28,837 nt of DNA from NCBI GenBank assembly GCA_947627195.1, contig CANQVC010000022.1:1-28837 (forward strand), given 5' to 3'. Below the pieces are notes generated by a model. The model searched no databases. It worked only from the letters and a program-made list of their open reading frames with translations, and was not told where the DNA came from. Position numbers and translations under genes: made by a program. Shown here one piece after another: positions 1,696 to 18,751 of the stretch (the stretch's first letter is position 1; every line of letters starts with the position of its first letter). Origin of the DNA: an uncultured Bacilli bacterium (lineage in GTDB: Bacteria > Bacillota_I > Bacilli_A > ML615J-28 > CAG-698).

Positions 1696-4317
1696 TTATA
1701 AATTATATTTTTTAATTCTATATGTTGATAAATATGATGATATAAAAGACAAAATTAAAATAATTAAATAAATAATTATTATTTTAATAAATGATAATTG
1801 ATAAAAAGGAAATACTAAATTAATATTATTTACTAATATTAATTTTAAAACAGATAAAAATATGAATGTTAAAAGAAGAGAAATTATATACGAAAATGTT
1901 GTTAGTAAAAAACATTGAACAATAAATGTCATTTGAATATAAATTGAAGTTGTTCCCATTGTTTTAAATAATTTAATTGCTTTATTTTTAAATTTAATCA
2001 TAAATGAATAATGCATAAATGTAATAAAAAATAGTACAATTAAAGCAATAATAACAATAATATAAAGATATTTTATTAAATTGTTTTTTGTTGTTTGAAA
2101 TGATAGATATGAATAAACATTTGCATCATTAATTTTATATTTAAATTTATTGATATCTTTTTCATTTTTCACAAGTAATTCTTCATTATCTAATATTTTT
2201 TCATTTAATGATATTATATCCATATCTTTATCACTATTTGATAATAAAACAATATAATTATTATATGTTTTAAATGATAAACCAAATAAATCATATAATT
2301 GATTAAATATTGATGAATTTATATATAAATCATCTATTGTTGGTGAATAATAATAACCAATGATAGTTACATCGATTGTTGAATATTCTTCATCATATTT
2401 ATTAATTTTATATTTTAATGGTATATCAATTTTAAAAAATTCTTCATAAAAATTACTAACAATATTTTTGTAAGAATGTTCTTCATCATATTCATTTATT
2501 TCATTTGTTAAAATATATGTATAATAATCTTTATAATTAAAAAAATCAGTTGCTACTTTATCATAATTTTCTTTCGCAAATTCTAATATTTCATTATTAA
2601 TTTTATCATCAATAAATCGTTTAGTAGATGAATTAATGGGAATTATAATACCATTTTTATAATTCATATTACGAAAATAGACTGTATCATCAGGGCTATT
2701 TATACTTGCTTGAATGTTATTTTTATTTAAAATTAGTCCATCATGAATTTTTAAACTAAATTCTCCATCAATTATGCGATATGAATTTTTCATTTTTTCT
2801 TTATAAAAATTCTTTTTTAAATATATTACATTATGTATTCCCTTATTAAATTCATCTTGAAATTCCTTAAATAATCTATTATTAGAATTATAGAACATTT
2901 TTTCATATGTTAATGTTTGATATCTATCAATATTAAGTTTTGTATCTATTATTCCAACAATACGTAAAGGAAATTGTTCACCTTTTTCTTCAAAATATAA
3001 TGTTTTACCTATTATATCATCATATGTCTTAATTTCATATTGTTTTGATTCATACATATAATTTCTTTTTTGATATTGAATAAATTGATATTTGGTAATA
3101 ACTACTTCATCATATGATATAGGAGCACTTCCATAAAGTTCAAAATTACAATTAGAAATTAAATTAGGATCATATTCTATAAATCCTCTATTAATTTCAT
3201 CATAAAATATTGAACCTAAATTTTTCATATAATCATTTTTAAAAAAATAATCTTCTATATCATTATCTCCTAAATTAGGATATGTATTAACAAAATAATT
3301 ATATACAGGAAAGCCTTGGGAACCAAATAAATTATCAATGAATTTGGCATCATTTTCACCCATTCCATAATTTTTATTTGATATAACATCATCTTGTATA
3401 TATTTCTTTTCAAAACTTACATATTGAATATTATTTTCATATAATCCTTTTAATAACATCTTTGTTTCATCTATATATAATACTGATATCGAAAATAACA
3501 TTAATATAAATGTTATTATTAATCCTAATCCTAAAAATATTAATCTCTTTAGTTTTACTTTTGTCCATCCTTTTAATATCTTGATGAAACTTTTTACTTT
3601 TATCTTTCCTTCTTCTTCTTCTTTTTCTTCTTTTCTTTCTTTTTCTTCTTTTATTATTTTATCTTCTTTTATCTTTCCTTCTTCTATTTCTATCTTTCTA
3701 TCTATATATTCTTCTATCTCTTCTATTTGATGACTTACTATTATTACTAATCTTTCTTTACTTATTTCTTTTAATTTCTCTATTACTTTCTTTGATGTCT
3801 TTTTATCTAATGCTCCAGTTACTTCATCACATAATATTATATTTGGCTCTTTTAATATTACTTCTGCTAATGCTACTCTTTGTTGCTGTCCTCCTGATAA
3901 TTCATTTATCTTTCTTCTTTCTATATCTTCTATCTCTAATTCTTTTAATACTTCTTTTATTTCTTCTTCTTTTCTCTCTTTCCTACTTATCTCTAAATAT
4001 ATTTCTATATTCTCTTTGACGTTTAATTCTTCTATTAAATTATATTTCTGATATACTATCCCTATCTCTTTTCTTCGATATTCACTTAACTCTTTCTCTT
4101 TTAATTTATTTATCTCTTTTCCATTTACTTTTATTTCTCCACTATCTATTCTTTCTATTCCACCTATTAAGTTTAATAATGTTGTCTTTCCACTTCCTGA
4201 TCTTCCTACTATTGCTACCATCCCTCTATCTGGTAACTTTATATTTATTTCTTTTATTGCTTCTACTTTTTCTTTCTTTGTTTGATATGTCTTTCTTACT
4301 TCTTTTAGTTCTATCAT
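1696..4317 (-). CDS. MacB-type (type VII) ABC transporter, fused ATP-binding domain + large ectodomain + FtsX permease (paralog 1)
   Basis: Walker A GRSGSGKTT, signature LSGGQQQR, Walker B ILCDE, E/K-rich linker, TM1. The ~500-aa ectodomain has the MacB periplasmic-core motif (IVGIIDT). C-terminal FtsX-like TM bundle. RBS GAGGTG before the ATG. Confidence 0.8.
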   Translation of the reverse strand: MIELKEVRKTYQTKKEKVEAIKEINIKLPDRGMVAIVGRSGSGKTTLLNLIGGIERIDSGEIKVNGKEINKLKEKELSEYRRKEIGIVYQKYNLIEELNVKENIEIYLEISRKERKEEEIKEVLKELEIEDIERRKINELSGGQQQRVALAEVILKEPNIILCDEVTGALDKKTSKKVIEKLKEISKERLVIIVSHQIEEIEEYIDRKIEIEEGKIKEDKIIKEEKERKEEKEEEEGKIKVKSFIKILKGWTKVKLKRLIFLGLGLIITFILMLFSISVLYIDETKMLLKGLYENNIQYVSFEKKYIQDDVISNKNYGMGENDAKFIDNLFGSQGFPVYNYFVNTYPNLGDNDIEDYFFKNDYMKNLGSIFYDEINRGFIEYDPNLISNCNFELYGSAPISYDEVVITKYQFIQYQKRNYMYESKQYEIKTYDDIIGKTLYFEEKGEQFPLRIVGIIDTKLNIDRYQTLTYEKMFYNSNNRLFKEFQDEFNKGIHNVIYLKKNFYKEKMKNSYRIIDGEFSLKIHDGLILNKNNIQASINSPDDTVYFRNMNYKNGIIIPINSSTKRFIDDKINNEILEFAKENYDKVATDFFNYKDYYTYILTNEINEYDEEHSYKNIVSNFYEEFFKIDIPLKYKINKYDEEYSTIDVTIIGYYYSPTIDDLYINSSIFNQLYDLFGLSFKTYNNYIVLLSNSDKDMDIISLNEKILDNEELLVKNEKDINKFKYKINDANVYSYLSFQTTKNNLIKYLYIIVIIALIVLFFITFMHYSFMIKFKNKAIKLFKTMGTTSIYIQMTFIVQCFLLTTFSYIISLLLTFIFLSVLKLILVNNINLVFPFYQLSFIKIIIIYLIILILSFISSYLSTYRIKKYNL

Positions 4318-4406
4318 GTTATCACCTCACTTAATAATAGGTATTTACATTTATTATTATTATTCAATTTCACATTTTACTATACGATATATATATCTTT
4401 ACTATA

Positions 4407-4435
4407 ATTATATCAATCATTTCAATGCTTGTCAA
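4407..4435 (-). promoter_or_regulatory. Sigma-70 consensus promoter (-35 TTGACA, 17-nt spacer, -10 TATAAT) for the 1696..4317 ABC gene
   Basis: Minus-strand reading: TTGACA(4435..4430), a 17-nt spacer (agcattgaaatgattga), then TATAAT(4412..4407). It sits ~85 nt upstream of the ATG at 4317. Confidence 0.45.
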
Positions 4436-4517
4436 GACATTTAGCTTTATTTGCTAATTATTAATTAATATAAAAATAAAGGAATTATAGTAATAAACTA
4501 AAATTCCTAATTAAATT

Positions 4518-17118: not shown

Positions 17119-17122
17119 TTTA

Positions 17123-17160
17123 AAAAATAGAGGTAAATAAAGGAAAATATTTACCTCTAT
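17123..17160 (-). terminator. Rho-independent terminator after the Big_2 surface protein gene
   Basis: Perfect 12-bp stem UAGAGGUAAAUA/UAUUUACCUCUA with an 8-nt loop, followed by UUUUUUAAAAA. It lies ~10 nt before the RBS of ABC paralog A. Confidence 0.55.
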
Positions 17161-17167
17161 TATTAAT

Positions 17168-18751
17168 TTATTCTACACGTACATTAATTATAACTTTTAT
17201 TCTTTGATTATATTTATAACGACCAATAACTGTTGTACTACCAACATGATGTCCTGTTAAAGTTCCGTAAATGGAAACACTAACAAGACTTGAATTACTT
17301 GATGACCAAATATATGCTTGATTTAAATTGTATGGAACATTATATGGCAAATCAAGAATTTCAGGAACACCAAGTTTAATGTTAATTGAATCTTCAATTT
17401 CAATTGGAGACGTGTTTTTATCATTTACAATTTTGAAATCTCTTTGATAAACAATATTTCTGTTGGTTTTATTTGATGCAACTATCGTCACTGACAAATT
17501 TTCTCCTCCTGATATCGCTAAAACTGTTCCATATTGACTAACAGTAGCAACATTAGGATTACTTGAATACCAATCATATTCTAATCTTGATTTTGGTGAT
17601 TCAATTGTTGGATTCAGACTTAGACATCTTGTAAAACCTTCTGTAATAGTATCTCCATTAGATAATCCGTTATTTAAATGAACTTCACTACCAACAGCGT
17701 TAATATCAGCTAATAAGCCATTTCTAGAAGCCTCTTCATCATATTGTCTTACAATATTTGTATGAACAGAGCCCGCATAATTACTATTTAAAAATTTAAT
17801 AGAAATAAAATGAACTCCATCTGTAATATCTGTTATCATTGTTGTATTATTATTGTTTATTGAATAATTATCACATTCTAACATCATATGTTGATCATAT
17901 AATTTTACATCAACACTTTGATTGCTACTTGCTTTAATAATAATTTTAGATGATGCAAAAATATTTAATTTATATAATAAGCAATCATTTAATGAAAGCT
18001 CATTTTCAAAGAAAATTGGATTTAATGTTAAACCTATACTTTTTTCATCATTAATATTAGGAGTATACGCTTTAATATAAAATAAACCATCATCAACTAA
18101 ACTTGAATCTAAATCAGTAAAGTGTAAAGTATCAACATAACCATTTAATTTATGATTCCAATCTTTAGCATATGGATGATTATCGCCTGTATGTTCATAC
18201 AAACCACCATCACCCCATTTTGAAATTAATTTAACATATTTCAAAGTGTTAAGATTATCAATATTAAATCCATTTTCAACAGACGTTACTATTGCTGAAT
18301 TACTAAGATAAATACTATCAGAACTTATTTCGGTTCTATCATTATTATTATAATAGATTTTTATCCTATAAAAACAAATTATATCACCAACATTAACAGA
18401 TTGTGTTTCAATATAGCTTCCATCATCTATGTATTTTTCAATTTCATCAGAAGAAATTGAATAATGATTTGAAAGATAATCTTGATTAAACCATGCATAT
18501 GAATGACCATTATACATTGCTGTCGGGTTATCTATACGTATTGCACCATTTTTTACATACCTATCTTCATCTATAAGATAAGCTTGAATTTTTTCTGGAT
18601 TAAGTTCTGAATTATTTGTATAATATTTTATAACAGTTCCTTTAGGAGTGCTAGGTGTAGAATTAATTGCTTTCACACTAATCACGTTAAAAGACACAAC
18701 TAAAATAAGCAACCATGCTAGGCAAAAAAACATCTTTAAAATTTTTTTCAT
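17168..18751 (-). CDS. Secreted/surface protein with N-terminal signal peptide and two C-terminal bacterial Ig-like (Big_2) domains
   Basis: Signal peptide MKKILKMFFCLAWLLILVVSFNVISVKA. The C-terminal segments 'YDWYSSNPNVATVSQYGTVLAISGGENLSVTIVA' and 'WSSSNSSLVSVSIYGTLTGHHVGSTTVIG' match Big_2. RBS GGAGG. Confidence 0.6.
   Translation of the reverse strand: MKKILKMFFCLAWLLILVVSFNVISVKAINSTPSTPKGTVIKYYTNNSELNPEKIQAYLIDEDRYVKNGAIRIDNPTAMYNGHSYAWFNQDYLSNHYSISSDEIEKYIDDGSYIETQSVNVGDIICFYRIKIYYNNNDRTEISSDSIYLSNSAIVTSVENGFNIDNLNTLKYVKLISKWGDGGLYEHTGDNHPYAKDWNHKLNGYVDTLHFTDLDSSLVDDGLFYIKAYTPNINDEKSIGLTLNPIFFENELSLNDCLLYKLNIFASSKIIIKASSNQSVDVKLYDQHMMLECDNYSINNNNTTMITDITDGVHFISIKFLNSNYAGSVHTNIVRQYDEEASRNGLLADINAVGSEVHLNNGLSNGDTITEGFTRCLSLNPTIESPKSRLEYDWYSSNPNVATVSQYGTVLAISGGENLSVTIVASNKTNRNIVYQRDFKIVNDKNTSPIEIEDSINIKLGVPEILDLPYNVPYNLNQAYIWSSSNSSLVSVSIYGTLTGHHVGSTTVIGRYKYNQRIKVIINVRVE

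Follow-up and report, generated by a model that had tools for sequence, protein, structure and literature searches.

A conserved cassette of MACPF, MacB-type ABC transporter and Big_2 genes inserted beside a separate transporter pair in an uncultured Bacilli bacterium

In a 28,837-nucleotide contig of an uncultured Bacilli bacterium (GTDB lineage Bacteria; Bacillota_I; Bacilli_A; ML615J-28; CAG-698; GenBank assembly GCA_947627195.1, contig CANQVC010000022.1, positions 1 to 28,837 of the forward strand), we find very large single-chain MacB-type ABC transporters of a clade that is linked to a conserved three-gene cassette, whose other members are a perforin-like (MACPF) gene and a gene for a secreted protein with Big_2 domains. 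The whole stretch, called the window here, has a G+C content of 23%, and nearly all of its genes lie on the minus strand. An earlier note, made from the letters of the sequence alone, had described positions 1696 to 18751 as a single island of five paralogous transporters, which we name A to E. The MACPF gene (18837-20354) adjoins this range, lies outside it and was missed. The locus is composite: A on the one hand and MACPF-Big_2-E-D on the other are two separate insertions into a conserved chromosomal backbone. The five transporters likewise fall into two sets, a conserved C/B pair and an A/D/E clade, and are not one paralog family. The genes and sites on which the argument turns are as follows.

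1696 to 4317, minus strand: transporter A, 873 aa, with ABC_tran and FtsX; MACPF-linked clade, orphan copy in insertion 2
4407 to 4435, minus strand: promoter-like site upstream of A (TTGACA, 17 nt, TG-TATAAT), 12/12 hexamer positions with extended -10, a pattern match only
5775 to 8669, minus strand: transporter B, 964 aa, second member of the C/B pair
8666 to 10936, minus strand: transporter C, 756 aa, first member of the C/B pair; Pfam FtsX not detected
11743 to 14394, minus strand: transporter D, 883 aa from the first ATG
14391 to 17117, minus strand: transporter E, 908 aa from the first ATG
17123 to 17164, minus strand: 17-bp-stem hairpin followed by T6 (minus strand), between the Big_2 stop and the E start; possible partial terminator
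17168 to 18751, minus strand: secreted Big_2 protein, third cassette member, 527 aa; signal peptide, conserved N-terminal domain and two C-terminal Big_2 domains (2.6e-10)
18837 to 20354, minus strand: MACPF (perforin-like) gene, 505 codons, signal peptide, one in-frame TGA; directly upstream of the Big_2 gene
20399 to 20426, minus strand: promoter-like site upstream of MACPF (TTGACA, 16 nt, TG-TATAAT), 12/12 hexamer positions with extended -10, a pattern match only

Adjacency of a MacB-type ABC gene to a candidate secreted MACPF toxin gene recurs across five lineages or more. Every one of E's closest full-length relatives adjoins a MACPF gene, in at least four lineages other than that of the window. 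In 'Staphylococcus sp. CAG:324' and five further contigs of its lineage (our loci L003-5, L012, L014 and L015) the order is MACPF-ABC-Big_2, and the CAG:324 genes encode proteins of 499, 909 and 536 aa, respectively, separated by spacers of 6-13 nt. A second lineage (L010/L011) has the same order with spacers in this range, and in L006 the MACPF gene is followed by an ABC gene and then by the contig end. L007, from another organism (ENA ERZ27249684 NODE_172, 1-18781; 27% GC), carries a larger array, ABC941-ABC908-MACPF509-ABC926-MACPF536-ABC940, with a Fic gene and a Mur ligase on its flanks. Its four ABCs are interleaved with two MACPFs that are 42% identical to each other, and two of the ABCs have no adjacent MACPF. 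The nucleotide-binding domains (NBDs) of the four are 55-83% identical, with 16-43% identity elsewhere, the same pattern as that of D and E described below. Transporter A is the best blastp match of all the cassette ABCs in other loci, at 29-35% identity. The third gene leads to the same result, as full-length Big_2 homologs in metagenomes have an ABC gene directly upstream at 6 of 6 loci, and a MACPF gene as well at all five loci with enough upstream sequence. The window and CAG:324 Big_2 proteins are 40% identical (E 4e-125), above the ABCs (~30%) and the MACPFs (~25%). Full-text literature searches on MACPF with MacB, FtsX or ABC permeases returned no paper linking them. The parts are known (MacB fold, MACPF, toxin-linked ABC immunity); their combination with a Big_2 protein in Bacillota is not described.

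Residues 1-345 of the Big_2 protein (window 17717-18751, minus strand) hold strongly conserved motifs, YN[GS]HSYAW and ISKWGDGGLYEH. This part has no match in Pfam (searched at E<=5), NCBIfam or PDB sequences, the PDB profile search matching only the immunoglobulin-like part of the protein; distant homologs of this part alone occur in two further loci (L016, L017).

The MACPF gene of the window aligns over its full length with the cassette MACPFs of the other loci, and a hidden Markov model built from the latter matches its two halves at 4e-168 and 2e-28. Against Pfam PF01823 it scores 19.6 bits, under the cut-off of 21.5, while the CAG:324 homolog reaches 54.5 bits (E 2.3e-14). The MACPF signature motif is Y/W-G-T/S-H-F/Y-x6-G-G. 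The window protein has F-G-T-H-I-LMRGTF-G-C in this region, the second Gly being replaced, and the homologs have FGTH-x6-YGG. In a PDB sequence search, a profile of the cassette MACPFs matches GNIP1Aa and complement C6 best, with E-values between 1e-3 and 1e-2. A word-index search with the CAG:324 protein gave four matches only. None of the MACPFs examined has a lipobox Cys in a lipoprotein context. A scan of viral contigs with the MACPF alignment gave no matches, hence no evidence for a phage-borne cassette. The in-frame TGA lies at 20073-20075, in a column where the homologs have Asn. Recoding of TGA under genetic code 4 or 25 was considered and ruled out, since five other genes end in TGA and the Trp codon is TGG, so that TGA is a true stop in this genome. 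The window MACPF gene is thus probably a pseudogene.

The composite origin of the region is seen by comparison with L020 (GCA_947627395.1), the closest relative found; this is one relative and one 17-kb contig. Its gene order is AAA_21, RloB, GlpK, a 63-aa open reading frame with DUF2752 on the opposite strand, C, B, a helix-turn-helix gene, DacA and ThrE. Protein identities to the window are 53% for AAA_21, 68% for RloB, 77% for GlpK, 67% for the DUF2752 pair, 57% for C, 53% for B, 84% for DacA and 82% for ThrE. The helix-turn-helix gene, on the opposite strand between B and DacA, is missing from the window. By blastn the two DNAs are collinear at 72-80% identity except at two sites, and the synteny breakpoints define two insertions relative to L020.

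11561 to 20516: insertion 1, 8.96 kb, with MACPF, Big_2, E and D
1701 to 4518: insertion 2, 2.8 kb, carrying A

The breakpoints of insertion 1 are L020 4019/4110 and window 20517/11560, where L020 has 90 nt between glpK and the small transmembrane (TM) protein gene. Those of insertion 2 are L020 11909/12717 and window 4519/1700, where L020 has 808 nt between DacA and ThrE. Both L020 sites are non-coding, and neither holds an A/D/E-type gene. The window order is thereby explained as a chromosomal backbone (glpK, the DUF2752 pair, the C-B pair, dacA and thrE) plus two insertions. DacA, DUF2752, C and B appear interleaved with A, D and E because of these insertions and are otherwise ordinary syntenic neighbours. 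Directly after the glpK stop and before the MACPF consensus promoter lies a hairpin with a 10-bp stem, AAGATCTTAC...GTAAGATCTT (window 20355-20513, minus strand), which marks the left edge of insertion 1. At the site that A occupies in the window, L020 has the 808-nt stretch (11908-12716), in which no gene is called and whose G+C content is visibly above that of the flanking DNA; this stretch may be a remnant or an RNA gene.

The division into two sets is equally visible in the paralog identities. Among A, D and E the NBDs are 68-100% identical, the ectodomains ~30% and TM helices 2-4 22-32%; B or C compared with any other of the five gives 35-43%, 24-28% and 21-36%, respectively. A search with E gave D (47%, P0001), a partial copy of A and otherwise no full-length match above 29% identity, and the sole match to E in a scan of a genome collection was an unrelated alphaproteobacterial NBD. 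With a threshold of E<=1e-3 a profile of the A/D/E ectodomain matches 1120 clusters, and with E<=1e-10 it matches 671; most are proteins 850-1000 aa long in which the matched part spans roughly residues 280-770. The A/D/E ectodomain is therefore a recognisable domain family and not an unalignable hypervariable sequence. One of the proteins matched, P0359 (964 aa), was suspected of being B and on comparison is not.

B has more than 100 homologs at 100% coverage and 40-54% identity, labelled 'ABC transporter ATP-binding protein/permease' in metagenome-assembled genomes of Clostridia and in Pumilibacter muris. In L018, L019 and L020 an orthologue of C (750-765 aa, 45-57% identity) lies directly upstream of the orthologue of B, and the 4-nt ATGA stop/start overlap between the two genes is kept in all three as in the window. 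Since both arrangement and overlap recur in three genomes, C and B form a conserved pair of different half-transporters. Their NBDs are 72-87% identical between orthologues, and the ectodomain, at 25-59% the least conserved part, is still alignable across orders. Most likely C and B form a heterodimer, as LolC and LolE do, and constitute a heterodimeric type VII (MacB-fold) ABC machine, probably with a housekeeping envelope function. Like LolCDE, the pair consists of two different, co-encoded and presumably heterodimeric permease units of MacB fold. Unlike in LolCDE, an NBD is fused to each half, the ectodomains are far larger, and there is no lipoprotein-sorting context. Conserved homologs of housekeeping character thus exist for B and C and not for A, D and E. 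The earlier note had proposed two translationally coupled heterodimer pairs; ATGA overlaps indeed join both C/B and E/D, and a heterodimer is likely only for C/B.

In architecture the five transporters largely bear out what had been described. All five minus-strand reading frames (873, 964, 756, 883 and 908 aa) are present, and the single-chain order of NBD, TM1, ectodomain and permease holds in each. ABC_tran (PF00005) is found N-terminally in 5/5, at E 1e-32 to 2e-34, and Walker A (GKSGxGKT/S), LSGGQ, Walker B (C/A)DE and the H-loop SH/TH are visibly complete in the five translations. Again in 5/5, the hydropathy profile shows a single TM helix behind the ATPase, then a long hydrophilic region, then three TM helices at the C-terminal end. 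The ectodomains had been put at 450-600 aa and measure 345-494 aa (A 469, B 469, C 345, D 474, E 494). They are rich in Tyr, Asn and Asp, as claimed, about two-fold over other window proteins (9.9/10.1/8.4% versus 4.1/6.0/4.7%), and both secreted neighbour proteins are likewise enriched. FtsX (PF02687), ascribed to all five, scores 30.6-44.9 bits in A, B and E and passes the cut-off there; D matches weakly, at a relaxed threshold only, and neither C nor its orthologues match. The 'VGIIDT' strand, described earlier as the MacB periplasmic-core motif, lies in a core of 65 columns that the ectodomain profiles of A/D/E and of B have in common (hhalign probability 70%); the Pfam MacB_PCD domain matches 2 of 12 members of the B family and none of the five. 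The statement that ectodomains are far more divergent than the ATPase or FtsX parts holds against the NBD (35-100% identity) and fails against TM2-4, which are as divergent as the ectodomain, with paralog identities of 21-36% versus 24-30%.

E was modelled by AlphaFold2 on an alignment of 17 sequences (mean predicted local distance difference test score, pLDDT, 73.8; predicted TM-score, pTM, 0.60). In a Foldseek search of the PDB the top seven matches are full-length MacB chains (5LIL, 5LJ7, 5LJ6, 5GKO and 5NIK), at E 1e-27 to 3e-21 and a TM-score of 0.58-0.62 normalised on MacB. At the level of fold, a MacB-type single polypeptide is thus correct. In MacB, too, NBD and permease are fused, and its ectodomain measures ~200 aa (PMC5985334); the unusual feature here is not the fusion but the size of the ectodomain, which in E has an extra ~250 residues (475-715). 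The classes nearest to the NBDs are lactococcin-972, MacB, LolD and FtsE. No MacA/HlyD-type adaptor gene was found among the window's open reading frames, nearly all of which were assigned or read, nor in the related cassettes.

D and E share a segment that comprises the ribosome-binding site, start, NBD, linker and TM1.

13549 to 14394, minus strand: D copy of the homogenised segment, 846 nt
16272 to 17117, minus strand: E copy of the homogenised segment, 846 nt

The two copies differ by two mismatches, one at gene position 762 and one at 834, and are otherwise identical. The identical tract starts exactly at ATGAGGTGTCAAATG, with a Shine-Dalgarno-like GAGGTG and the second ATG, the one chosen by the gene caller and aligned with A. 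It stops abruptly at the end of TM1, beyond which the genes are ~30% identical; the upstream sequences are unrelated. The likely true start of D is this second ATG at 14382, giving 879 aa, equal to P0001, and that of E is at 17105; an exact database look-up of E from its first-ATG start found no record. Over the same stretch A and D are 56-87% identical in DNA. The segment would fit a recent gene conversion or module swap that homogenised the motor, so that one motor, from ribosome-binding site to TM1 end, is now fused to two different modules of ectodomain plus TM2-4. In this respect the gene conversion proposed earlier stands, as a conversion-like tract. P0125, the only other strain copy of D, has a 35-aa ectodomain insertion, a few substitutions and E's residue at the repeat boundary. 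L001 (ENA ERZ27249389 NODE_3395; 2.3x coverage) is a second assembly of the same strain, 100% identical elsewhere, and joins across the D/E repeat without the E-specific part, being either a recombinant or a collapsed assembly. It also has a ~59-nt deletion in the Big_2 gene (window 17397-17455), which cuts the product to 432 aa, and a ~85-nt deletion in C (window ~10459-10541), which splits it into 136 and 507 aa. These deletions are flanked by 2-5 nt of microhomology and are real population variants or low-coverage assembly errors.

Selection was assessed by Nei-Gojobori ratios of nonsynonymous to synonymous substitution rates (dN/dS) between CAG:324 strains L003 and L014; L014 and L015 were kept, and L003 versus L012 was left out owing to an out-of-register alignment. 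For the ABC, dN/dS is 0.17 in the NBD, 0.06 in TM1, 0.37-0.47 in the ectodomain and 0.25 in TM2-4. For its partners, it is 0.10 in the MACPF domain, 0.57 in the MACPF C-terminal domain and 0.12 in the Big_2 protein. The fastest-evolving parts of the cassette are thus the ABC ectodomain and the MACPF C-terminal domain, rates that would be compatible with mutual recognition between the two. All values are below 1, which points at most to relaxed constraint or localised selection and not to positive selection.

We tentatively favour the reading that A/D/E-type transporters guard the producer against a secreted perforin-like toxin, that is, that they are its immunity determinant, and we give this somewhat less than an even chance. 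Type VII ABC proteins pass ATP-driven motion to extracytoplasmic domains, and in Gram-positives the MacB-type systems YknXYZ and AS-48EFGH shield producer cells, from outside the membrane, against the membrane-active toxins that these cells export by Sec (PMC5985334). In gut Bacteroidales, MACPF proteins are secreted antibacterial toxins whose genes adjoin the producer's resistance determinant (PMC4999547). By analogy with these MACPF-domain BSAPs, the cassette MACPF would be a Sec-secreted protein toxin. ATP hydrolysis in the cytoplasm would move the ~480-aa ectodomain of a transporter dimer by mechanotransmission, and toxin monomers or pre-pores would thereby be kept from, or stripped off, the membrane of the producer. 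Extra copies, such as A with its own consensus promoter and the D/E duplicate, might serve as orphan immunity genes, directed at related toxins that competitors make. The strain of the window would then be an 'immune non-producer', which lost its toxin to the in-frame TGA and kept the transporters. We have high confidence in the two transporter families, the composite locus and the conserved MACPF cassette; toxin activity, the immunity role and the orphan status of the extra copies we infer alike. The earlier suggestion of a role in toxin export or immunity is plausible.

Several observations weigh against the immunity reading. The MACPF might act on host or eukaryotic cells and not on bacteria. 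The TGA may be an error of sequencing; its sole support is a second assembly in which a product of 378 aa was called as well, possibly from the same reads. No transporter matches MacB_PCD (PF12704), even with isolated ectodomains at E<=5, and a model of the ectodomain alone (pLDDT 54) was too poor for a fold search. Four distant family members of 25-26% identity (P0120, P0087, P0048 and P0054) have no MACPF nearby, 4/4, so that the MACPF link defines a sub-clade and not the whole family. The window order MACPF-Big_2-E-D differs from MACPF-ABC-Big_2 elsewhere, and the hairpin at 17123-17164 may partly terminate transcription between Big_2 and E. Finally, the Big_2 protein is the best-conserved cassette member, yet immunity leaves its role unexplained.

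Because ABC copies persist and multiply without a toxin (A alone; two in L007), and because D and E are intact while the window MACPF is broken, we prefer immunity to a role in secretion or maturation. A, D and E retain complete ATPase motifs, and A stands solitary behind a 12/12 promoter match. A release or maturation machine would extract the Sec-translocated MACPF from the outer membrane face, activate it or pass it on through the wall, perhaps together with the Big_2 protein, as LolCDE extracts lipoproteins, MacAB expels enterotoxin STII and FtsEX activates a bound partner. The tight, operon-like spacing of the three genes would suit this, as would the MacB fold with its precedents for mechanotransmission. 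MACPF and Big_2 both carry an N-terminal hydrophobic signal or anchor, and Big_2 could be the bound partner. Transporters without a toxin partner, whether A, the two in L007 or D/E beside the interrupted MACPF, and the want of a lipobox Cys in lipoprotein context in the MACPFs make it unlikely. A second possibility is that, as with the BSAPs, the ectodomain is the MACPF receptor and the producer carries a resistant allele beside the toxin gene. Bacteroidales MACPF genes do adjoin non-targeted replacements of the surface target, at OmpR and O-antigen loci (PMC4999547), and the neighbour here is surface-exposed, with the ectodomain its fastest-evolving part. However, L020 has no A/D/E-type gene at either site, hence nothing to replace. 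Paralogs also accumulate, three here and four in L007, where sensitive receptor copies would be a liability; such accumulation suits a dominant protective function, and the intact ATPase motifs imply an active machine. We regard target replacement as quite improbable.

Much the same standing, that of a long shot, goes to generic transporters for antimicrobial-peptide or xenobiotic resistance that adjoin MACPF genes incidentally. The NBD classes nearest to ours and the solitary or unrelated contexts of distant family members fit such transporters; adjacency at 6-13 nt that recurs in five or more lineages, with cassette proteins sharing no more than 24-43% identity, and twice within L007, does not. 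The earlier note's own view, of a five-paralog island forming a surface-variation or export system under diversifying selection and gene conversion, could draw on the common architecture, on NBDs more conserved than the rest, on an 846-nt D/E segment with a strain-variable end point and on an assembly variant without the E-specific part. We consider it very improbable. B and C are conserved backbone orthologues, and A and E-D came in separately. The supposedly hypervariable ectodomain belongs to a family of 671 clusters, has dN/dS below 1 like every other part and is matched in divergence by TM2-4, and the D variant is a 35-aa indel. Conversion homogenises the motor without shuffling the ectodomains; no invertible promoters, recombinase genes or silent cassettes were found in the window.

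The cassette and its transporters share features with several known systems. MacB of MacAB-TolC and other type VII ABC proteins share the N-terminal fused NBD, the four TM helices and the large extracytoplasmic domain between TM1 and TM2. They differ in ectodomain size, 345-494 aa here versus ~200 aa in MacB (PMC5985334), and in the Pfam MacB_PCD domain, which is not detected here. In contrast to MacAB-TolC, there is no MacA-type adaptor or TolC gene, the host is of Gram-positive type, and the partners are MACPF and Big_2. AS-48EFGH and YknWXYZ resemble the cassette in that a MacB-type ABC is encoded with a Sec- or separately exported membrane-damaging toxin and presumably acts at the outer face (PMC5985334). 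Their toxins, however, are small peptides (AS-48, SDP), with NBD and permease separate and ectodomains of ~230 aa, whereas the cassette has a ~500-aa perforin-like toxin candidate, a single-chain transporter and no adaptor. With BSAP-1 and BSAP-2 it shares a secreted MACPF protein of gut bacteria beside a gene for producer resistance (PMC4999547), a role that we infer here. BSAP producers resist by target replacement (an outer-membrane protein or O-antigen) with no ATPase, the sequences are very distant, and the host here is a low-GC Bacillota.

The remaining features of the window include the other backbone genes.

4518 to 5678, minus strand: D,D-carboxypeptidase (DacA/PBP5-like), backbone and not cassette; Peptidase_S11 1.2e-70 and PBP5_C
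5741 to 5766, minus strand: terminator-like hairpin and T-run after B
10999 to 11379 and 11376 to 11570, plus strand: DUF2752 protein (7.4e-17) and 64-aa two-TM protein, backbone

The D,D-carboxypeptidase, the DUF2752 and small-TM pair and the signal-peptide Big_2 protein named earlier are all present, and the L020 DacA, 84% identical, occupies the same position. The convergent terminators placed around DUF2752 are not; only AT-rich palindromes occur there, none of them G+C-rich, and C and DUF2752 are divergent. Rfam and tRNA scans gave no matches. At 22015-23818 (minus strand) an AAA_21 ATPase of 338 aa (PADLOC AbiLi 8.9e-43, also AriA-like) overlaps a 274-aa RloB-like protein. The two look like an AbiL-type two-gene phage-defence pair and have the same position in L020 (53% and 68%). 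A 518-aa protein (26901-28457, minus strand), unrelated to the cassette, resembles flotillin-type membrane scaffolds by eye only, and directly downstream of it lies a 103-aa small zinc-ribbon membrane protein (26587-26898, minus strand).

The C/B pair defines a widespread, uncharacterised and putatively heterodimeric type VII transporter of Clostridia and relatives. For the cassette, a broader and more doubtful proposal is that MACPF-ABC-Big_2 represents a new class of protein bacteriocin of Gram-positive gut bacteria. Immunity would be mechanical and ABC-driven, orphan paralog arrays would be an acquired defence against the perforins of competitors, and gene conversion would keep a common ATPase-TM1 motor on interchangeable specificity modules of ectodomain plus TM2-4. 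If the immunity reading is right, the cassette would be the first candidate MACPF toxin system in Bacillota and would join two well-studied fields that have stood apart, perforin/MACPF pore formers and MacB-fold ABC machines whose mechanical work is done outside the membrane. This reading would add a new mode of resistance, active ATP-driven removal, to the target replacement of Bacteroidales, and would account for the arrays of 'ATP-binding protein/permease' genes, very large and poorly annotated, in uncultured gut Bacilli.

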